A stretch of 64,000 nt of DNA. It comes from an uncultured candidate division Zixibacteria bacterium. GTDB taxonomy: Bacteria > Zixibacteria > MSB-5A5 > UBA10806 > 4484-95. The stretch covers positions 768,001 through 832,000 of the forward strand of contig CAXXKA010000008.1 in the NCBI GenBank assembly GCA_963668625.2, given 5' to 3'. The notes under the pieces were generated by a model. The model made no database searches. It saw only the letters and a list, made by a program, of their open reading frames with translations, and was not told the DNA's origin. Positions 6,843 through 45,942 of this stretch are shown here, one piece after another. The position numbers and the translations under genes were made by a program. The stretch's first letter is position 1. Every line of letters starts with the position of its first letter.

Positions 6843-6856
6843 CCAGGGGGATATTC

Positions 6857-8044
6857 ATGCGCGGGTGTAGAGTCCCGTTCCTCACGATTTTCACTCTGTT
6901 GACGCTGGTAACGCTGGTAACGCTGGTTTCGGCACAGGCCGATATGGATACGCTTACAGCGCCGGCTTTACCGCAGGTTGAAAATATCAAAGTATATGAT
7001 AAGCCCAACGATCCCGGCCGGACACTGGTGATCGAATGGGATATTCCGCTTTCTTATGATAAGACAACTGTCGCCATTGATGGTTTTAAGATTTATAATG
7101 CTGAAAGTCCGGAGGGGCCGTTCGAGCTTCTGGCTACACTGGCCGCCGGATCGAATCGATACGAATGTTCCGGCCTTACCGATGGCCACGATTATTTTTT
7201 CAATATCACTAGTTTTTCCAATTCTCACGAATCCGAGATAGCAACAGCCGGACCGGCCTCACCCAGCGGTCAATGGTTTAATACCGATCGTGTCCCGATC
7301 ATGCTTATGGTGATACTCTTTTCAGCTACAGCAATCGCTTTCATCACAAAAGCCAGGATGGGTTATAGCTTTTACGTGCGACCTATCGCGGGGATCAGGG
7401 CGGTTGATGACGCTATCGGCCGGGCCACCGAGATGGGACGACCGATACTGTACGTGCCGGGTCTGGGCACTGCCGCCGATGTCGCTACGATCGCGGCTTT
7501 CACCATACTCGGGCGAGTTGCCCGAAAGGTGGTCGAGTATAACACCCGGGTGATCGTACCCAATTACGATCCCGTGGTGATGGCCGTTTGCCAGGAGGTC
7601 GTAAAGGAGGCTTACTCCTCGGCCGGAAAACCGGAGCTGTACGACCCGAAAGATATTTACTTTATCACCCAGGATCAATTCCCCTATACGGCGGCTGTCA
7701 ACGGGGTAATGCTTCGCGAACGACCGGCGACTAATTTCTATATGGGGATGTTCTATGCCGAATCACTGGTACTGGCCGAAACCGGTTTCGTCTCCGGTTC
7801 GATACAGATCGCCGGAACCGATCAACTCGTGCAGATACCGTTTTTCGTGTCAGTTTGCGATTTCGTACTGATGGGCGAGGAGCTTTACGCCGCCAGCGCT
7901 TACCTTTCCAAAGAGCCTCAGCAGCTCGGTACTTTAAAAGCCCAGGACTGGGGCAAGGTTCTGGTTGTTTTGCTTATGATTTTAGGTGTAATATTCTCAA
8001 CGATTGGCTGGGAGGCATTCGCCGCCTGGTTCGATGTTGGTTAA
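6857..8044 (+). CDS. Module 3 subunit A: signal peptide + FN3-like + TM + DUF6754-like + TM
   Basis: DKPNDPG..LVIEW; RPIAGIRAVDDAIGRATEMGRP; GEELYAASAYL. Confidence 0.85.
   Translation: MRGCRVPFLTIFTLLTLVTLVTLVSAQADMDTLTAPALPQVENIKVYDKPNDPGRTLVIEWDIPLSYDKTTVAIDGFKIYNAESPEGPFELLATLAAGSNRYECSGLTDGHDYFFNITSFSNSHESEIATAGPASPSGQWFNTDRVPIMLMVILFSATAIAFITKARMGYSFYVRPIAGIRAVDDAIGRATEMGRPILYVPGLGTAADVATIAAFTILGRVARKVVEYNTRVIVPNYDPVVMAVCQEVVKEAYSSAGKPELYDPKDIYFITQDQFPYTAAVNGVMLRERPATNFYMGMFYAESLVLAETGFVSGSIQIAGTDQLVQIPFFVSVCDFVLMGEELYAASAYLSKEPQQLGTLKAQDWGKVLVVLLMILGVIFSTIGWEAFAAWFDVG
6902..6928 (+). repeat. In-frame 9-bp tandem repeat x3 (TLV-TLV-TLV) in signal peptide
   Basis: ACGCTGGTA ACGCTGGTA ACGCTGGTT. 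Confidence 0.7.
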
Positions 8045-37617: not shown

Positions 37618-39768
37618 ATGAATAATATAATTATATATCAGAAAATGCTCGGTATGGCGGTAATTATAGTAACTATTTTATTTTCATTTTCTGATGCCAG
37701 AAGCGATGATCTGAAAAACTCTTTTCAATTCCTCTCGCCATCACCGGGGGCTGAATTAGTATCAAAGGAAACTAATATTATTATCAAACCCGGTAGTTCA
37801 CTGACCTGTAATAAAAACGAACTGGAAAACCTCGCCCTGATTCAGGGGTCGATATCCGGTATCCACACGTACTCTATTTACATTTCGGATGATAACCGTA
37901 CAATAACGCTAACACCGGATGTCCCATTCGTCCCTTCCGAGACGGTCACTGTCGATATCAATAATCCGATACCGGTCTCCGGTGATAAATTAACTAGAAC
38001 CGGCCAATTCATGTTTTACATCTCTGCCAAATCCTCCCCGCTAATATCCGAGGAGGAATACCGGGAGATGTCATATGAGGGAATGCTTGATCTTGAGGGT
38101 GATGACTTGGATGACCCTGTAACTCCTCAAAATACGGATATCGAAATGGTTTTGCCGGCTGACTTTCCCGGCCTGACCATCAGCGCCTTGGACAAACCTG
38201 CGAGTGGTTATGTTTTCATCGCTAAACATCGCCCGATTGGGAAAACCTACATGATGATTTTGGACAACATGGGGAAACCCATTTACTATTACAGGCAGCC
38301 CAATGTCGTAACCGATTTTAAGGTACAACTGGACACCTTGCTGTCTTTCTATGTTTATAACCGTCACAAGTTTTGCGTTATGGATACCACTTATACGGTG
38401 ATAGACTCTTTCGCCTGCGGTAATGGTTATTTCGCCGATCATCACGAATTCCAACTTCTGCCTAACGGTCACGCTATTCTGATCGCTTACGATACACAGA
38501 GTATTGATATGAGTAGAATCACCGAGGAAGGGCAAACCGATTGCCGGGTAACGGGATTGATAATACAGGAACTCGATCCGAGTAAACAGGTGGTATTTCA
38601 GTGGCGAAGCTGGGATCATATTCCTATCACGGATGTTACCCATGCTGACCTTTCCAGCCGATCGATCGACTATATACATGGTAATGCTGTTGAGTTGGAT
38701 GATGACGGCAATTACTTACTCTCCAGTCGTCACCTGGATGAGATTACGAAAATTAACCGTCAAACCGGTGAAATTATCTGGCGTCTCGGTGGCAAAAACA
38801 ACATGTTCGAGATTGTAAACGATAGCTCCGGCTTCAGCCGTCAACATGATATACGAAGAACCGATAGCGGTACTATAACCTTTTTCGATAACGGTAATTG
38901 GCATTCACCACAATTTTCCAGGGCCGTAGAATACTCGCTCGATACGGTGAACATGGTATGTGAGTTAGTATGGGATTACAGGTACCAGCCTGATATATGG
39001 AACGGCGTAAACGGTAGCGTTCAACGCCTGCCCAACGGCAATACGATGATAGGCTGGGGAGGGCCCTCGGAGATAACCCTGACAGAGGTAAACGATCGAA
39101 ACGAGAAGCAATTCGAGCTATCGTACGTAGAGGGGCCCGATACCTGGTCGTACAGGTCGTTTCGTTTTCCCTGGAGCGGAACCGCTAAAACCCCGTATCT
39201 TATAGCCGAGAAAACCGCACAGAAAAATATTAAACTTATATTTTACAAATTCGGCGATGATGATGTTTCCAAGTATTATCTGTACCTGAAGCACAAAAAC
39301 GGCTCATTCGAACTCGCGGACTCGACGACGAATAATTATTACATCCTGAATGACTACCCCGCCGGTAGAACTTACACCGCGAAAGTTACGGCTATAAATA
39401 GCAATGGTGATGAAAGCCATAGCTCTAATAGCGTCAGTTTCGTCATATCGGGGTTGGTATATAAATACCGTCCTGGCGATATAAATATGACAGCCGGATC
39501 ATGGCCTCCTCGTGTCTATGGCAGCGATGTCACCTACCTGGTGAATAATTTCAGGGGTAAAAATTCCCCCTGTTTGATAAACGGTTTCTTCTGTGCCGCT
39601 GATATTAACGGTGATTGCAGAATCACCGAAGCGGATATAACCGGAATGGTATCCTATTTGAGAGGCCAAAGCGATATATTATGGTGCAAGGATCATCAAC
39701 CGTTCTGGGAGCCGGAAGAGGATTACCCCGTTACAATCCCACCGGATTGGCCAAGTTGCGATGAGTAA
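37618..39768 (+). CDS. Secreted aryl-sulfate sulfotransferase with Ig/FN3 and dockerin-like CTD
   Basis: DHHEF, DYIHGNAV, SSRH, QHD, FDNG, QRLPNGNT.IGWG; YRPGDINM...WPSCDE; upstream TTGACA promoter. Confidence 0.85.
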   Translation: MNNIIIYQKMLGMAVIIVTILFSFSDARSDDLKNSFQFLSPSPGAELVSKETNIIIKPGSSLTCNKNELENLALIQGSISGIHTYSIYISDDNRTITLTPDVPFVPSETVTVDINNPIPVSGDKLTRTGQFMFYISAKSSPLISEEEYREMSYEGMLDLEGDDLDDPVTPQNTDIEMVLPADFPGLTISALDKPASGYVFIAKHRPIGKTYMMILDNMGKPIYYYRQPNVVTDFKVQLDTLLSFYVYNRHKFCVMDTTYTVIDSFACGNGYFADHHEFQLLPNGHAILIAYDTQSIDMSRITEEGQTDCRVTGLIIQELDPSKQVVFQWRSWDHIPITDVTHADLSSRSIDYIHGNAVELDDDGNYLLSSRHLDEITKINRQTGEIIWRLGGKNNMFEIVNDSSGFSRQHDIRRTDSGTITFFDNGNWHSPQFSRAVEYSLDTVNMVCELVWDYRYQPDIWNGVNGSVQRLPNGNTMIGWGGPSEITLTEVNDRNEKQFELSYVEGPDTWSYRSFRFPWSGTAKTPYLIAEKTAQKNIKLIFYKFGDDDVSKYYLYLKHKNGSFELADSTTNNYYILNDYPAGRTYTAKVTAINSNGDESHSSNSVSFVISGLVYKYRPGDINMTAGSWPPRVYGSDVTYLVNNFRGKNSPCLINGFFCAADINGDCRITEADITGMVSYLRGQSDILWCKDHQPFWEPEEDYPVTIPPDWPSCDE

Positions 39769-40096
39769 TGAAAATAGTTGCGCTAATACCGGAAATAGTG
39801 GTTCGACTATAAACAGGCTGTAGCAATCTGATGGACAAAATTAGTGTTATATAATAAGTATCTGCCAACTGGCGTAGCTCGAGGATATCTTTAATACCAC
39901 ACTATTAAACCAGCCCGGCTGTTAATGATGCTTTATTAGGCTTAAAATTCTTGATATTGTAATAATAAAGTCAAGCTCGTTCCCTTCTTCAAAGACTTTA
40001 CTTGGCATCTTTAAAATATGCTTTAATAGCAATGATATAGCGCGCTAATTCTAATAAAAAGCTTGCACAAAATTCGATTTATCGTATATTTAACAT

Positions 40097-40201
40097 GACC
40101 AAAACGAGAGATGGGATGTTACTATCAGATATTCCCCCCAATCTTTGGACATCCCATTATAGGGGTGCCAGGGAGCCCTTCCCAGCGCCCCGCTTTTTTT
40201 T
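40097..40201 (+). ncRNA. Putative small RNA, copy 1
   Basis: TTGCAC-N16-TATATT promoter; stem ATGGGATGT/ACATCCCAT with C6 loop; GC hairpin + T8 terminator. Confidence 0.6.
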
Positions 40202-40379
40202 GCCTAATTTTCCAGACAATTCAATATAATCAGCAATTAATGAATCTATAGTGGTTGCCTGTAATGTAATACCGGAAATAGAATAGCGTGGCCGGCAGAT
40301 TCCCATATCTACCGGCGATACTACTAAATTGAACGGATTAAAGAAAGCGATATACTCCAGCCAAAGAAATAGCCAGGTA

Positions 40380-42695
40380 TTAGAACTCGTACTCGATCCC
40401 GAATATAGGCAAGGTCGACCACTGTTCGACCTCTCGTTGCTCGTTGGCGATCTCGTTCCACTCGTAAGTGCCGATATTTTTCCTGCCGTATACGTTCCAG
40501 ACACTCAGATAGAATATCAAGTTGGAGCCGGTGAAATTGAATCGCCTATCGAATCGGATGTTCATCGAATGATAATCCGGCAGTCGTTCGGCGTTGATTC
40601 GGTCGGAATCGTATATCCCCCGGCCGGCTGTCTCCGAGGCTGCGATATCAAATGGTGTGTAGGGGGCGCCGCCGGCATAAATCCACCTGGTGCTGAACTC
40701 CCATTTATTATTCGGCTTATATCCGCCCTCGATACTGAAATTAAACTGGTTGTCATAAGCCCTGTCATACCAGATACCATCATAGCCTTTATAACGCGTG
40801 CGCGAATAAGCTCCGCTGATCATCCCGTAGAACTGCTTGGCCAATTTTTTCTGCACCATGAACTCAATCCCCCGGGCATATGCCTCTCCCGAGGATACGA
40901 GCGGGTTTCCGGCCAGGTACACGCTTTTACCGGCTATGTCATCAACGATGAATATCTGTTGCTTGAGCGAATCGAGCGGAAAATCGCGGTATTCTTTATC
41001 GAATACCTCGATTGTCAGGCGAGTATTTTCGGTTAGCATGTGATTAATTCCGAATACGTAATGATATGCCTTCGGGTCTTTCAGGTCTTTGTTAGCCTCA
41101 TTTTGCGCCAGTATCGGCATCGGCAGGTTCTGATAGTAAATACCGGCCGCAGCGTTTAGGGTGGTCAGGCTTGAAAGTATGTAGTTGACCGATAAGCGAG
41201 GGGAGATACTGGAGTTCTCGTTATAGGTGAAATAAGAAAACCTCGTTCCGGCGGTGACTGACAAACGATCGAATGGATTTACCGTATAGCTGAAAAATCC
41301 ATGCAATTTAGTCTCGTTAATATTGTCATCAACGGAATATGCCGGGGTTACGTTACCCAGTTCATCGTAATATTCTCCATAGTAATTATTGTAATCGATC
41401 AGCGAGTATTTAGCCTCTACACCTAATTCTAACTTGTGAGCGTTGTTTAATTTGATGAAATTAACATTCCTCAGCTTGAATTCGTTCTCAGTCGAGTTAA
41501 AATCGAACGACATCAGTTCGGCGCCGTGATCGTAATAATATTTCGTGTCATAACCCGTGTAGTTATAGTCGTATAACGTATGAGATATGGAGGTGTTGGA
41601 ATAACCATTCGCTCCCCACAGGTATCGCCAGTTGATTCCGGCGGTATTGGCTGTCATATTGAAACTATCGTAATATTTCTCCTCCTCCTCGATAGCATCC
41701 TCGATCTCGTCTGCTATATCATCGATAGAGAGAATATTGAGCAAAGTAATCTGGTTATTGCCGTTAAGATCGTAAGTCACCTTGCCGTGAATATCGCCAT
41801 AATTCGGTACCGAACCGTCATCTTCGCCAATAGCTTTGACTATCAAATCGAGGAAGCTTTTTCGTCCGGCTAATATCCATGAGCCTTTATCGCCAATAGG
41901 CCCCTCGGCGCCGCCACCGAAACCGGCAAACCCCAGATCTAACTGGGCGTCGAACTCCTCCCGGTTACCATCCCGGAAATCGATATCCATCACCGAGGAG
42001 AGACGGTCGCCGTAACGAGCCGGGAATGCCCCCGAATGGAATTCGACATCCGAGACCAGATCGACATTGATTAGGCCAACCGGCCCGCCAGAGGAACTTT
42101 GTTCGGGGAAATGGTTGATATTGGGTATCTCTATATTATCTACATAAAAGCCGTTCTCGAATGAGGCGCCGCCTCGTACGTAGAGTGTGTTTTGGGTATT
42201 ATCGTACTTGGCGATACTCGGCAATCCCATTATCATCCGGCTGACATCCCCGGCGGTCCCCGGCATGCGACGGATTTCCTCGTTGGAGAAACTCACATTG
42301 CTGGCAGGCGCATCCTGACGCTCGGCGAAATAGCCGGTGGTTATCACTACCTCATCAACCTCGATAGCCGATTCATTCAACTCAGCTTTAACGAACGTGA
42401 TTCTTTTAGGACGTACGATAATATCAGCTTTAAGCATTACCTCGTATCCCAGTAGCCTGAATTTCAGCGAGTAATTCCCCACCGGTACGTTCTCGATCGT
42501 AAATTCGCCGTCGCTAGAGCTAACCGCGCCTTTTTCCGTGCCAAGCAGGATTACGCTTACACCGGGAAGCGCAGATCTTGTTTCCGAATCTATCACCGTA
42601 CCGCTGATACTACCCTTTTTGATCTCATCAGCAGAGGCTATCGTGAATAAAATCGCTATCATTATCAATGCTAAAATTATCTTACTCATTTTCAA
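40380..42695 (-). CDS. TonB-dependent receptor with carboxypeptidase-regulatory-like N-domain
   Basis: ISGTVID..LPGVSV, YVRGG..EN, NHF, GAFPARYGDRLSSV, terminal F. Confidence 0.9.
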   Translation of the reverse strand: MKMSKIILALIMIAILFTIASADEIKKGSISGTVIDSETRSALPGVSVILLGTEKGAVSSSDGEFTIENVPVGNYSLKFRLLGYEVMLKADIIVRPKRITFVKAELNESAIEVDEVVITTGYFAERQDAPASNVSFSNEEIRRMPGTAGDVSRMIMGLPSIAKYDNTQNTLYVRGGASFENGFYVDNIEIPNINHFPEQSSSGGPVGLINVDLVSDVEFHSGAFPARYGDRLSSVMDIDFRDGNREEFDAQLDLGFAGFGGGAEGPIGDKGSWILAGRKSFLDLIVKAIGEDDGSVPNYGDIHGKVTYDLNGNNQITLLNILSIDDIADEIEDAIEEEEKYYDSFNMTANTAGINWRYLWGANGYSNTSISHTLYDYNYTGYDTKYYYDHGAELMSFDFNSTENEFKLRNVNFIKLNNAHKLELGVEAKYSLIDYNNYYGEYYDELGNVTPAYSVDDNINETKLHGFFSYTVNPFDRLSVTAGTRFSYFTYNENSSISPRLSVNYILSSLTTLNAAAGIYYQNLPMPILAQNEANKDLKDPKAYHYVFGINHMLTENTRLTIEVFDKEYRDFPLDSLKQQIFIVDDIAGKSVYLAGNPLVSSGEAYARGIEFMVQKKLAKQFYGMISGAYSRTRYKGYDGIWYDRAYDNQFNFSIEGGYKPNNKWEFSTRWIYAGGAPYTPFDIAASETAGRGIYDSDRINAERLPDYHSMNIRFDRRFNFTGSNLIFYLSVWNVYGRKNIGTYEWNEIANEQREVEQWSTLPIFGIEYEF

Positions 42696-42698
42696 TCC

Positions 42699-43268
42699 TT
42701 ATGCATTTCTATATTTTTTTATCTCAGTATCAATTACCGCCATTCCCATCTCGGTTAGAACACCACCGATATATTCTATGCTGTCATCTTTTACCACCCC
42801 GGCGCAAATCATAGTGGCCAGGCCATGCGTAAACAGCCAGCTTTTCTGAAGAATCGAGCGGCGCGCGTCATCATTCAGACCGTCGAAACGACTATCAGTC
42901 CTCATTGAATCGAAAGCCTGATCAATAAATTCATTAATGACATCCTTAAAATCATGATTTTCCATAAACAGCGAGCGAAACAGCATTTTCTCATCCCGGG
43001 CAAATAGCACAATACCGATACCGATATTTCTAAACGGGTACTTCGTATATGTGCGTTTCGTATACTCGAGTAACAGGTCTTTAGACTCCTTATATATCTC
43101 TTTTTCTACTTCCGGCATGTTTTTAAACTGACTGTAAACCGGCGCAGTGGAGGACTTCAACACTCCAGCGATTTTCCTGGCGGTTAAACCCTTTATCCCC
43201 TGTATTCGAGCTAATTCAAATGCGGCAGCGATAATACCCTTTCTGGTATATTTATTTTTAGGTGGCAT
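42699..43268 (-). CDS. TetR/AcrR-family regulator
   Basis: IIAAAFEL..GLTARKIA..STAPVYSQFKN. Confidence 0.9.
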   Translation of the reverse strand: MPPKNKYTRKGIIAAAFELARIQGIKGLTARKIAGVLKSSTAPVYSQFKNMPEVEKEIYKESKDLLLEYTKRTYTKYPFRNIGIGIVLFARDEKMLFRSLFMENHDFKDVINEFIDQAFDSMRTDSRFDGLNDDARRSILQKSWLFTHGLATMICAGVVKDDSIEYIGGVLTEMGMAVIDTEIKKYRNA

Positions 43269-43283
43269 AGCAACAAACCTTCC

Positions 43284-43317
43284 TATAACACACGTAATAT
43301 AACATAGGTTATATTAC
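43284..43317. promoter_or_regulatory. Probable TetR operator(s)
   Basis: Perfect palindrome GTAATATAAC-N4-GTTATATTAC (43294-43317) plus overlapping TATAAC-N4-GTAATA, just upstream of tetR. Confidence 0.7.
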
Positions 43318-43403
43318 ACATTATTGATAGAATTGTTTCGCTTATTTTTTTGATATCTAAGAATTTTAATTGATTTTTATAAACAATGTGTTATAAATTA
43401 GAG

Positions 43404-43507
43404 TATAAAATAAAAGAGATGGGAATAAGCAGAAAGGCTCAGCCCCTTGTCTTTTTGAATATCCCATTTATTGGGACGCCAGGCTTTGCCGGGTGTCCTT
43501 TTTTTTT
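43404..43507 (+). ncRNA. Putative small RNA, copy 2
   Basis: TTGATT-N16-TATAAA promoter with TG extension; stem ATGGGA.TA/TATCCCAT with AGCCCCT loop; GGACGCC/GGTGTCC + T9. Confidence 0.6.
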
Positions 43508-43553
43508 ATAAATTGATTTTGCATTTGCCCATGCTATTAAGTATAATAGAAAC

Positions 43554-43644
43554 CTGGGATGTAACTTGAAGGACGAAGCCCCTGGTCACTTCGACATCCC
43601 GTTTTATAGGCCGTCAGACTTAGATGTTTGACGGCCGCTTTATT
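43554..43644 (+). ncRNA. Putative small RNA, copy 3
   Basis: TTGCAT-N17-TATAAT promoter; stem GGGATGT/ACATCCC with AGCCCCT loop; 11-bp terminator stem GGCCGTCAGAC/GTTTGACGGCC. Confidence 0.6.
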
Positions 43645-43670: not shown

Positions 43671-45677
43671 TCAGGAAATGCGATCTTTCGACTCATTATT
43701 ATTATGGATTTTCTGCATTTCCTTCTTCATACAATCCGGGCAGATACTATGGGTAAATTCTGCGCCGGAATGATCGGAGACATAGGCCTCCACCTCAGTC
43801 CAGTATCCTTTGTCATCCCTGACGTTTTTACAATATGAACAAATAGGCAACAATCCGCTGAGGGTTTTCACTTTGGTAAGGGCTTGTTTAAGTTCAAGGA
43901 TTAATCGCTCTCGTTCGTCCTCGGCGGCTTTGCGGCGGGTTATATCGCGCAGAGTTGTTACGATTTTTAATGGTTTACCGTTTTCGCCGTATAGAAGTTT
44001 GGAGTTTATCGAGCAGATAATATCCTCGCCGTTTTTTGAGCGCATCCCCACCTCGTAATCGTTGAGCCATCCATGTTTTAATAGATGGTTGATTAGCTCT
44101 GGTCTTCTTCCCGGATCCATATATACGATTTCACTGGAATTGCCGACTAAATCATAACGTGTATATCCAAGTATTTTTTCCATTGATGGGCTTGCTTCAA
44201 GGATGATTCCATTCATACTGGTCTCTATATAACCATCATGAATATTCTCGAATATCCTTCTATATTTGGCCTCGCTCTCTTTTAAAGCCTGTTGTGTTGT
44301 TTTGCTTTCTGTGATATCACGAACAACGGCATATATTAATTCTTTCTCCGGAACAGGAATCGAGTTCCATGATAGCCACCGGTAAGAACCATCCTTGCAT
44401 TTGTACCTATTCTCGAATTCCAATACGCTATGTCCCTGCTGTAGTTGATCACAAGCCATTTTGGTTTTTTCGACATCTTCCGGGTGCACGAAATTAATCC
44501 AGGGTTTGCTGGTTATTTCTTCGGTAGTCCAACCGAGTATCCTTTTAACCGCCGGGTTTGTTTGCTTGAAATAACCATCCGTAGAAGCAACGCACTGGAA
44601 ATCCGGGGATAGGTTGAATAAGCGGGATCGCTCCTCCTCGGCTCGGATTCTCTGAACCAAACCCCAGATATTTTCAGCTAACAGGGCTAACTGATTGATA
44701 TCGAAATCATCATAGTTTTCATTCTTGTTGCCCATGCCGATTATGGCTACTATTTTATCGTTCTCAAAAACAGGTACCGTAAGATCGCGCATCAAGTTGA
44801 TATGGCCCTCGGGTAATCCTTTCTTATGCGGCAGGCCTGCGTAGTCGTTATGTATAACTGGTTTTCTTTGATGAACACAGTCAACCCAGACACCGGCTTT
44901 TTCGATCGAGTAATGAGATTCACTACTATCCGCCAGGCAGTTTTTCAAAGTACTATCCGACCATCTGAAAAGATTGATAGATTTTTGATCGTCGCTGACG
45001 AAATGAAGAAAACCGATCTTGCTACCGGTCAAACGTTGCCCCTCTTCTATGCCGGTTTTTATTATATCATCCACCGTGGCTTGTCCGAGCATACGGGCAA
45101 TTTTTATTATTGATTTAAGCGTATTCTCGGCTATTTTCTGAGGTTTAATATTCTGCAGCATACAAAAATAAGCGTTGTTTCGACTATGTTCCACACAATA
45201 AAGGTTCACATAAATAGGGGTGCCGTTCTTATGTAAAAATGTGAACTCTTGTTTATGTATTCCTGCTGATCCATCGTATACGATAGAGCATTCTTTGATT
45301 TTCGCTAAACTATCTTCCGAAATGAATTTATCGATTTTCTGGCCTATTACATCATGACTTTCATAACCGAACATATTTAACCAGGCACTATTAACGTCGA
45401 CTATAATTAGTTCTTTAGTGATTGAATGTATAGGAATGGGAACGTTTTCCAGAAAATTAGCTGTTTCGATATTATCATCCCTAATTCTATTCACGTAATC
45501 ATATATCGAGCTTTCAAAATCGCTGTTTTTAGCTTTCGCTAATTTTCCGATAGGTGCAGTTGCTGTCTGACCGGGATTGGTTAATTTGATACTTCTACGT
45601 TCCCGGCCGTAATTTCGGTTTTTACTTTCTGGCAATCTGCGAGAATTATTTAGCCTACGAATGAAGGCCGGTCTCAT
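43671..45677 (-). CDS. PAS-GAF-PAS-PAS sensor with C-terminal Cys4 domain, no kinase domain
   Basis: PAS S-box motifs (DIT, HPED), GAF (IHNDY...NK..YD..D), LPICSYCK..RDD.GYW...HSICPDC. Confidence 0.82.
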   Translation of the reverse strand: MRPAFIRRLNNSRRLPESKNRNYGRERRSIKLTNPGQTATAPIGKLAKAKNSDFESSIYDYVNRIRDDNIETANFLENVPIPIHSITKELIIVDVNSAWLNMFGYESHDVIGQKIDKFISEDSLAKIKECSIVYDGSAGIHKQEFTFLHKNGTPIYVNLYCVEHSRNNAYFCMLQNIKPQKIAENTLKSIIKIARMLGQATVDDIIKTGIEEGQRLTGSKIGFLHFVSDDQKSINLFRWSDSTLKNCLADSSESHYSIEKAGVWVDCVHQRKPVIHNDYAGLPHKKGLPEGHINLMRDLTVPVFENDKIVAIIGMGNKNENYDDFDINQLALLAENIWGLVQRIRAEEERSRLFNLSPDFQCVASTDGYFKQTNPAVKRILGWTTEEITSKPWINFVHPEDVEKTKMACDQLQQGHSVLEFENRYKCKDGSYRWLSWNSIPVPEKELIYAVVRDITESKTTQQALKESEAKYRRIFENIHDGYIETSMNGIILEASPSMEKILGYTRYDLVGNSSEIVYMDPGRRPELINHLLKHGWLNDYEVGMRSKNGEDIICSINSKLLYGENGKPLKIVTTLRDITRRKAAEDERERLILELKQALTKVKTLSGLLPICSYCKNVRDDKGYWTEVEAYVSDHSGAEFTHSICPDCMKKEMQKIHNNNESKDRIS

Positions 45678-45942
45678 GTACCCCCCTATACATAAAATGC
45701 CGTTAATATATTATCGGATTGATGTTAAGCTCAATCCGTTAATAATTACCGGAACGTAAATAATGTTACACTCACTAAACAAAATCTGGTTGTCTGTTTT
45801 TATTATTAATCCTTCACTTCAGATATCTCAAAGTAATCGATTACATATTAATGCATTTCAACTCAGATATTAACATTTTCAGGGAGGCTAAAATTAAATA
45901 TTCCCCTTGCCCGAACTCCACAATATCCATATCTTTGCCCCA

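Follow-up and report, generated by a model that had tools for sequence, protein, structure and literature searches.

The 6C small RNA (sRNA) of Actinobacteria carries two C-rich loops on separate hairpins and is single-copy and conserved phylum-wide, and the LhrC1-5 sRNAs of Listeria carry several UCCC motifs per copy and have mapped regulators and targets. In Geissmann et al. (2009, PMC2790875), RsaE-type sRNAs of Staphylococcus are described as blocking ribosome loading without Hfq by means of unpaired UCCC motifs; the motif, placed in a loop, binds the ribosome-binding region of mRNAs and prevents the initiation complex from forming, and several unrelated RNAs of one genome carry it. For 6C, Mai et al. 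(2019, PMC6486639) describe C-rich loops that bind mRNA directly and independently of a chaperone through multiple G-C pairs. Here, three elements of comparable design are reported from a 64,000-nucleotide (nt) stretch of DNA of an uncultured candidate division Zixibacteria bacterium (GenBank assembly GCA_963668625.2, contig CAXXKA010000008.1, positions 768,001 to 832,000 of the forward strand), referred to as the window. They are termed c1 (40063-40201), c2 (43370-43507) and c3 (43518-43644; positions are those of the window unless a contig is given) and lie on the plus strand. In all three, promoter-like hexamers are followed by a long hairpin with a C-rich apical loop, an A/U linker and a G+C-rich terminator hairpin with a U-run. 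Judged by their letters and folds, the three units are a genuine, genus-restricted and undescribed family of putative sRNAs that is triplicated here. The best explanation, held with modest confidence, is that they are paralogous sRNA genes with their own promoters, whose C-run loop would cover G-rich Shine-Dalgarno (SD) sites.

The likeness to RsaE/RoxS and the other Rsa sRNAs (Staphylococcus, Bacillus) extends to the genome of the window, which has at least six hairpins with a C-run in the loop and in which no hfq gene was found. By contrast, the window RNAs show no sequence or covariance-model similarity to RsaE/RoxS (E ≤ 10), belong to another phylum, have one C-rich loop on one long hairpin instead of two motifs, display (A)GCCCCU or C6 in that loop instead of UCCC, and are known here from sequence alone. 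Like LhrC1-5, they occur as several paralogues, partly in tandem, and each is predicted to have a promoter and a terminator to itself and a C-rich loop that would occlude the SD; unlike LhrC1-5, to which they have no homology, they have one loop each. In copy number and breadth of conservation, 6C resembles another RNA gene of Zixibacteria, the core sRNA described below, more than it resembles the window family.

To our knowledge, Zixibacteria are known from metagenomes only, and a full-text search of the literature returned no regulatory RNA described in this group. If the units are expressed, an sRNA strategy whose characterised examples come from Firmicutes and Actinobacteria would reach a distant Gram-negative lineage, and a natural series of core gene, paralogues and triplicated satellite family could illustrate the origin and divergence of sibling sRNAs. 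As the organism is uncultured, the findings are of limited practical value.

Architecture and distinctness of the three units

An earlier note on the window, made from its letters, had proposed three sibling units with one architecture on the plus strand, and they were found where it had placed them. Unit c1, recognised by sequence, fold and a match to a covariance model of hairpin plus linker (R1), begins with hexamers read from the sequence, a -35 element TTGCAC (40063-40068) and, after a 16-nt spacer, a -10 element TATATT (40085-40090). An A-rich 5' leader of ~14 nt precedes the hairpin (40110-40158), which is composed of stem P1 (40110-40119/40149-40158), an inner stem P2 read from sequence and fold (AGAU/AUCU) and the apical loop AUUCCCCCCA (40131-40140). 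After the linker AUA follows the terminator (40162-40191), with eight U residues. Unit c2, supported by the same three lines of evidence, has a -35 element TTGATT (43370-43375), an extended -10 element TGtTATAAA (43389-43397) and a hairpin at 43418-43468 (P1 43418-43427/43460-43468; P2 CAGAAAGGC/GUCUUUUUG; apical loop UCAGCCCCUU, 43439-43448); its linker UAUU leads to a terminator at 43473-43499 with a U-run. Directly 3' of this terminator, and thus in the tandem arrangement described earlier, lies c3. Its promoter (TTTGCA-18-TATAAT, 43518-43547) and its terminator (43609-43636, tail GCUUUAUU) were both listed by a consensus scanner, and between them are placed the hairpin (43555-43601; P1 43555-43562/43594-43601; P2 UGAAGGAC/GUCaCUUCG; apical loop GAAGCCCCUG, 43575-43584) and the linker UUUUAUA. 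The A-rich 5' tail is missing from c3.

In the 5' stem common to the units, (GA)UGGGAUGU pairs with ACAUCCCAUU, with a bulged A in c2, and an internal loop separates this stem from the inner one. As had been claimed, the letters of P2 differ wholly among the copies while pairing is kept, and each apical loop comprises 10 nt and is rich in C, the run being CCCCCC in c1 and (A)GCCCCU in c2 and c3. RNA folding yielded minimum free energies (MFE) of -35.9, -38.5 and -40.2 kcal/mol for c1, c2 and c3, with z-scores of -3.6, -4.3 and -6.4, and for each unit 0/200 shuffles folded as well. The C-run lies in the apical loop in both the MFE and the centroid folds of c1, c2, c3 and the two orthologues described below. 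All three units show -10-like hexamers, with weaker -35 elements 16-18 nt 5' of them, and in each unit a separate promoter of the sigma-70 type probably drives synthesis of an RNA of ~90-105 nt.

When R1 was run against the 4.3-Mb genome of the window, c2, c1 and c3 scored 69.7, 63.8 and 58.6 bits, and the next match reached 18.4 bits (E 0.78). A regular expression for the hairpin matched five places in the same genome, namely the three copies and two unrelated sites. The mean column identity of the copies is 69-75%, and blastn linked them neither to each other nor to any other part of the genome, so that they are not a recent or multi-copy repeat. A mobile repeat of the REP or MITE type, with three copies only and no blastn links, is therefore not supported. 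Paralogous genes in one genome are the mark of sibling sRNAs, and three copies, two of them in tandem, are present here.

A search of the whole window against Rfam 15 gave 0 matches at gathering scores, and the description of the family as new was thereby upheld. At E ≤ 10, five weak matches were obtained between 39800 and 44000, none of them to a family with C-rich loops (RsaE, 6C, csRNA, cuckoo-type). The best, to ncr1241 (32.1 bits against a cut-off of 60; 43431-43504), runs from the 5' half of the hairpin through the terminator of c2 and consists mostly of terminator letters; a match to atoC had 18 bits (E 10).

Relatives in the genus and conservation of pairing

For comparison, the window's own genome is designated G000, two genomes of the same genus (g1) G001 and G002, and a genome of the same family (f1) G009. 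R1 matched 8 of 41 relatives at E ≤ 1, four of the family's 10 genomes at E ≤ 0.5, and 11 of 151 phylum genomes at E ≤ 0.3, none of the last with more than 24.3 bits outside G000; weak members may have been lost from this phylum-wide search, since its prefilter missed the G002 copy. Among the weak matches inspected (n = 11), the architecture was recognised in G001 and G009 only, and G133 was ambiguous. The orthologue at G001:C106 (30.7 bits, E 3e-4) lies between genes, preceded by TGtTATAAT and followed by a terminator. Its relative at G002:C118, which lies at a contig end, was found by BLAST with the G001 copy (87% identity, 82 nt aligned); R1 gives it 23 bits when the locus is supplied. The model search, as suggested in the earlier note, and the BLAST search thus led to one orthologue each in G001 and G002. 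G009:C47 holds a look-alike with the full architecture and 21 bits. The G001 and G002 loci have nothing in common except the RNA itself; since their flanking genes differ, the RNA is the conserved item.

A family-specific pattern was applied to 285 phylum genomes and matched all three g1 genomes; its ~10 matches elsewhere were treated as chance because a reversed control gave as many (13). Nothing comparable was found outside the genus among these 285 genomes. A looser pattern with matches in 27 of 41 relatives was discarded for its chance-like appearance. A pattern scan of metagenomes, which may omit records near the window's own genome, returned at least 119 stretches; 12/119 passed a hairpin filter, the hairpin-linker-terminator order appeared in none among the matches listed, and several of those share a coding-like context. 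On this sequence evidence, the family has so far been seen in a single genus, in which two species have one copy apiece and the window genome has three.

Each of the six sequences forms one hairpin (17-22 pairs) that displays the C-run in its apical loop. With positions counted from the GGG core, P1 stays paired through UA↔AU at +4, UA↔CG at +6 and GC→GU at +1. Because MAFFT never set the 3' stem of c3 in register, R1 was trained on a partly mis-registered row, and pairs were counted from single-sequence folds and from an alignment (A6) of c1, c2, c3, the G001 copy and the G009 copy, with G002 left out. Pairing that outlasts changes of letters, proposed earlier for the three copies, was also seen among homologues: in A6, 84% of cells pair and both sides change in 4/10 P1 pairs. 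The observed numbers of paired cells and both-side changes and the covariation score were reached by 7-13 of 500 shuffles, two weaker measures by 38/500 and 132/500, and with the partner columns slid by 1-3 positions 40-56% of cells pair. P2 cannot be aligned among the copies and is paired in every one.

A core sRNA of the phylum

The G009 look-alike has an exact 17-mer, AGUUCCAGCCCCCCUCU, in common with another RNA gene, here called the core sRNA. Its copy in G000 (C1:381594-381683, minus strand; locus L218:994-1084:-) has the promoter TTGACA-N17-TTATTAT and a single ~75-nt hairpin that ends directly in a U-run and is its own terminator. With up to two mismatches, a level that includes chance matches according to a reversed control, the core word is present in 110/285 phylum genomes, including 9/9 of family f1, 14/14 of f2, 5/5 of f4, 3/3 of f3, 19/20 of f18 and 8/9 of f8; exact or one-mismatch words usually occur once per genome. 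In one genome each of ~185,000 prokaryote species, the exact word was found 76 times, 49 times in a hairpin loop, and the titles of these 49 records read Zixibacteria (24), 'uncultured Ignavibacteria' (16), 'uncultured bacterium' (5) or other (4). The 13-nt loop UUCCWGCCCCCCU, closed by AG/CU, is invariant in 31 copies except for A/U at one position, and compensatory changes affect 10 of the 13 predicted pairs (31 sequences). None of eight core loci matched Rfam. An identity with the signal recognition particle (SRP) RNA was rejected, as a normal SRP RNA lies on C7 (64 bits). A conserved stretch, TGATTGGAAtAAATCCAnCC, was observed ~15-25 nt after the U-run of the core sRNA in several genera (e.g. 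L218, L220, L221, L175, L222 and L223).

The core sRNA has in common with the window family its host, a promoter of the sigma-70 type and a long hairpin whose unpaired loop contains AGCCCC; unlike the window units, its hairpin is itself the terminator, its loop is invariant, and it is single-copy and widespread. G009:C47 has features of both, with the exact 17-mer loop of the core on a hairpin-linker-terminator body like that of the window copies. A covariance model of the core (R2), built from the 31 sequences, found in G000 the core copy only (86 bits). With filters off, its best match between 39000 and 45000 had 13.9 bits (E 0.1) and fell in the TetR operator region, no hairpin being matched; the terminators of c1 and c2 received 12.5 and 11.3 bits. 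R2 missed the G001 and G002 members (L032 and L181, no match at E ≤ 1), R1 scored no core RNA, and the invariant core loop is absent from the window units, its overlap with AUUCCCCCCA, UCAGCCCCUU and GAAGCCCCUG being AGCCCC or the C-run only. Diverged second core copies occur in some genomes, such as G001:C49 (30 bits with the core model). The common features are the general design, the AGCCCC motif and a short AUGGGAU..UAC stretch noted by eye between c1 and G001:C49. By the tests run, the window family does not appear to be part of the core family, and common descent is possible.

In family f2, sequence complementarity suggests a candidate conserved target of the core sRNA, namely the leader of an operon that encodes a zinc-ribbon protein (64 aa) and a DEAD-box helicase (847 aa). 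In 7 of the 12 f2 genomes with enough upstream sequence, this leader carries GUAGAGGG(G/A)GGCUGGAA (L314:140-300 in G012:C8, and G010, G015, G016, G017, G018 and G020), always in the same position relative to the helicase start (-285 to -318). Exact complementarity to the core loop extends over 8-15 nt, with 14-15 nt in three genomes, and the duplex energies range from -27.6 to -34.5 kcal/mol. The site was found in 0/9 f1 genomes, including G000, the orthologous operon of which is without a G-rich site. Such conserved, long complementarity makes base-pairing by C-rich loops credible in the lineage, and it is probably for base-pairing that they are used there. The SD of rimP in G000, with an 11-nt complement, was rejected as a core target, since the complement occurs in 1/29 genomes. 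A hairpin, GGGAGTGGGTTGACAnnCCCACTCTTTT, is conserved ~40-70 nt upstream of the rimP-nusA operon (L264 and relatives; f1, f2, f7 and f12) and looks like a terminator or attenuator. A 411-nt tandem repeat was further noticed at G000:C10:183516-184815 (L315:516-1815), with 3.2 copies of 99% identity and no open reading frame of ≥100 aa; each unit carries GGAGAGGGGGGCCAGGG, complementary to part of the core loop.

More broadly, and as a tentative suggestion that is not our expectation, hairpins with an AGCCCC(CC)U loop could form a phylum-wide layer of chaperone-free tuning of G-run ribosome-binding sites, made up of an ancient core and fast-evolving satellites, with the window family as a diverged offshoot of the core. 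Counted as satellites would be the three window units, the two paralogues G001:C49 and G009:C47, and the remaining C-loop hairpins in the window genome. The core RNA is arguably a more important object than the window family.

Predicted mode of action, alternatives and surroundings

In the favoured reading, the exposed C-run of the window RNAs would pair with G-runs in or beside the SD sequences of some mRNAs, and this pairing would block ribosome loading and silence them. Neither Hfq nor ProQ would be needed, as several G-C pairs between single strands would suffice; no gene for either protein was found in the window genome (95.9% complete), which fits such chaperone-free pairing. Transcription, action in trans and the anti-SD mode are inferred, and by analogy with the described systems a role as trans-acting translational repressors can reasonably be proposed. 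The organism employs strong, canonical SD sites: upstream of 3285 predicted starts, GGAGG occurs 662 times at -18..-5 against 42 expected (the 3' end of the 16S rRNA carries CCUCC). GGGG variants occur 450 times against 95, the G-run counts being upper bounds because the start-picking rule favours G-runs. G6 lies in the 22 nt before the start in 12/3285 predicted genes. One of these encodes a PAS/GAF sensor protein (668 aa; 43671-45677, minus strand, convergent with c3) and is an unproven candidate target of the CCCCCC loop of c1, with which its site could form six G-C pairs (-14.6 kcal/mol). The complement of the AGCCCCU loop, AGGGGCT, precedes 5 starts against 1.6 expected, two of which are mis-called; the other three belong to genes for a SulP permease, a STAND-TPR protein and a large repeat protein.

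The units are set among genes on both strands. A gene for an arylsulfotransferase-like protein (716 aa, plus strand) ends at 39768, and c1 begins 340 nt 3' of the preceding stop codon. A TonB-dependent receptor (TBDR; CarboxypepD_reg, Plug and barrel by Pfam) is encoded at 40380-42695 on the minus strand, convergent with c1; its translation probably begins with the ATG at 42689, which AAGGA precedes. Within this gene, a weak match to Hammerhead_HH9 was noticed (42584-42649, minus strand; 18.7 bits, cut-off 52; E 0.5) and is most likely due to chance. The gene for a weakly TetR-like protein of 189 aa (42699-43268, minus strand) is divergent from c2 and is the first of a two-gene unit with the receptor. 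The tetR-TBDR pair that the earlier note had placed between c1 and c2 is thus borne out for the receptor and the position; the TetR identity is weak, with 0 Pfam matches and NCBIfam TetR/AcrR hits on the N-terminal helix-turn-helix (HTH) at E 0.004-0.016. By its position, the 189-aa protein may be a local regulator. A perfect 10-4-10 palindrome found by a repeat search, GTAATATAAC-atag-GTTATATTAC (43294-43317), lies 26 nt upstream of its start codon and ~50 nt upstream of the -35 element of c2, and is probably the operator of this protein. No plus-strand gene lies downstream of any of the three units, and they are therefore not leaders or riboswitches.

Two exact copies of a 15-nt direct repeat, TAATACCGGAAATAG (39784-39798 and 40267-40281, plus strand), bracket c1 with a spacing of 483 nt. 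The word is absent elsewhere in the genome even with one mismatch, and the pair may be the scar of an insertion or duplication. Near c1, it was also observed that a C-terminal domain of ~103 aa, encoded in the window at 39442-39762, recurs at more than 60 other places in G000 (e.g. C8:803617-804063; 45-64% identity), where dozens of genes for secreted proteins terminate in it; for two of these proteins, the C-terminal stretch gave no NCBIfam match. Genes with this domain lie just 5' of c1, of the G001 copy and of the G009 look-alike, and in G009 it is a type IX secretion system (T9SS) sorting domain.

A number of findings weigh against the proposed repressor family. The gene starts used in the target searches are crude and were picked by a rule that rewards G-runs. 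Seed-word and duplex-energy searches over the 3285 genes brought out no target that stands out, and the best duplexes were no better than the number of sites tried predicts. Both G-run SDs pointed out earlier do exist, as GGGGGG at 45681-45686 (minus strand; the ribosome-binding site of the PAS/GAF gene, 3 nt before its ATG) and as CAGGGGG at 6844-6850 (6 nt before the ATG at 6857); as local targets they are weak, the PAS/GAF gene ranking 137/3285 for c1 and 126/3285 for c2. The units are regarded as independent transcription units on the basis of sequence signals, namely the -10-like hexamers and the terminator; a look-up of sequencing runs listed no RNA run that covers the locus. In the region, the consensus scanner listed 14 promoter-like sites against 11.3±3.8 in shuffles and 3 terminator-like sites against 4.2±1.8, and of the units it flagged the promoter and terminator of c3 only. 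The earlier claim of an own promoter for each unit hence stands with scanner support for c3, whereas the promoters of c1 and c2 are a reading of the letters. The direct repeat around c1 may mean arrival by insertion rather than local selection. In G001 and G002, no copy of the RNA was seen upstream of the orthologous TetR-TBDR pair (45-46% identity), so the link of the RNA to these neighbours is not conserved. Finally, five members of the family are known and three of these are paralogues, which makes the covariation statistics weak; covariation is accordingly supportive, not strong.

That the units act in cis as transcript ends, either as stabiliser or terminator modules in the 3' untranslated region (3'-UTR) that insulate convergent genes or as sources of 3'-UTR-derived RNAs cut from the upstream mRNA, appears unlikely. 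It would suit this role that a secreted-protein gene on the same strand closely precedes c1, the G001 copy and the G009 look-alike, as would the orientation of c1 and c3 towards the ends of the convergent TBDR and PAS genes and a C-loop hairpin with terminator at C8:352436 that begins 15 nt after a pyrophosphatase-like stop codon. However, no plus-strand gene precedes c2, the TetR-like gene being divergent, the start of c1 is remote from the preceding stop codon (by the 340 nt given above), TATAAT-like hexamers were read 7-22 nt 5' of the hairpin in 5/5 members, and the c3 terminator offers no minus-strand U-run to the PAS gene. Slightly less likely still is a role of real RNAs in binding protein, in which the C-rich loops would dock a KH or cold-shock poly(C)-binding protein and titrate or recruit it. 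GGA loops act in this way for CsrA. The C-runs in the loops of several unrelated hairpins of the genome, the invariance of the 13-nt core loop well beyond the needs of a short seed and the want of a convincing mRNA target for the window copies would all agree with docking, but the loops differ among the three copies (CCCCCC against AGCCCCU), and the core loop matches a leader site in 7/12 f2 genomes, exactly over 14-15 nt in three; a long complement at a fixed place is a signature of RNA-RNA pairing.

It is improbable that the units have no present function and are what is left, in decay, of a small DNA element that was once inserted or duplicated, with hairpins that act at the level of DNA or are meaningless. 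The unique repeat around c1, the orthologous locus without copies in G001 and G002 and the different genomic contexts in these two genomes point that way. Against this, there are three copies only, too diverged to be linked by blastn; compensatory change keeps the stems paired, and 87% identity links the G001 and G002 copies although their contexts are unrelated; reading of the unit ends, with no search made for them, revealed no terminal inverted repeats; and the inner stems vary yet pair, which a site in double-stranded DNA would not need. Least probable is that the units encode small proteins from the common ATGGGA. An ATG does stand at the equivalent place in 4/5 members, and short peptides of c1 and c2 are alike (PIIGVPG and PFIGTPG), but the peptides would have 46, 30, 17 and ≥30 aa, c3 has CTG, and from G001 to G002 the reading frame shifts before being restored, so that a conserved small protein is excluded, in line with the statement in the earlier note that no reading frame is conserved. 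In addition, the frames traverse the terminators, and the purine-rich stretch abuts the ATG with zero spacing.

Other modules were noticed elsewhere in the window genome. On the minus strand of G000:C5, at ~97,400-97,520, a long hairpin (loop ACCCCCUCC) is followed by a linker and a strong terminator, a layout like that of the window copies. The hairpin with terminator on C8 mentioned above (G000:C8:352436-352510, plus strand) has the loop UUGACCCCCCUCG and lies 200 nt upstream of a 451-aa gene, the ribosome-binding site of which, CCGGGGGGAG, is one of the 12 G6 sites. At least six stretches (G000:C4:74090, C4:86052, C6:806782, C8:213203, C10:304174 and C10:393639), identical over the ~106 nt printed, each hold a hairpin CUUCCGAG-UUCCCCCC-UCGGAAG and are probably part of an insertion sequence.

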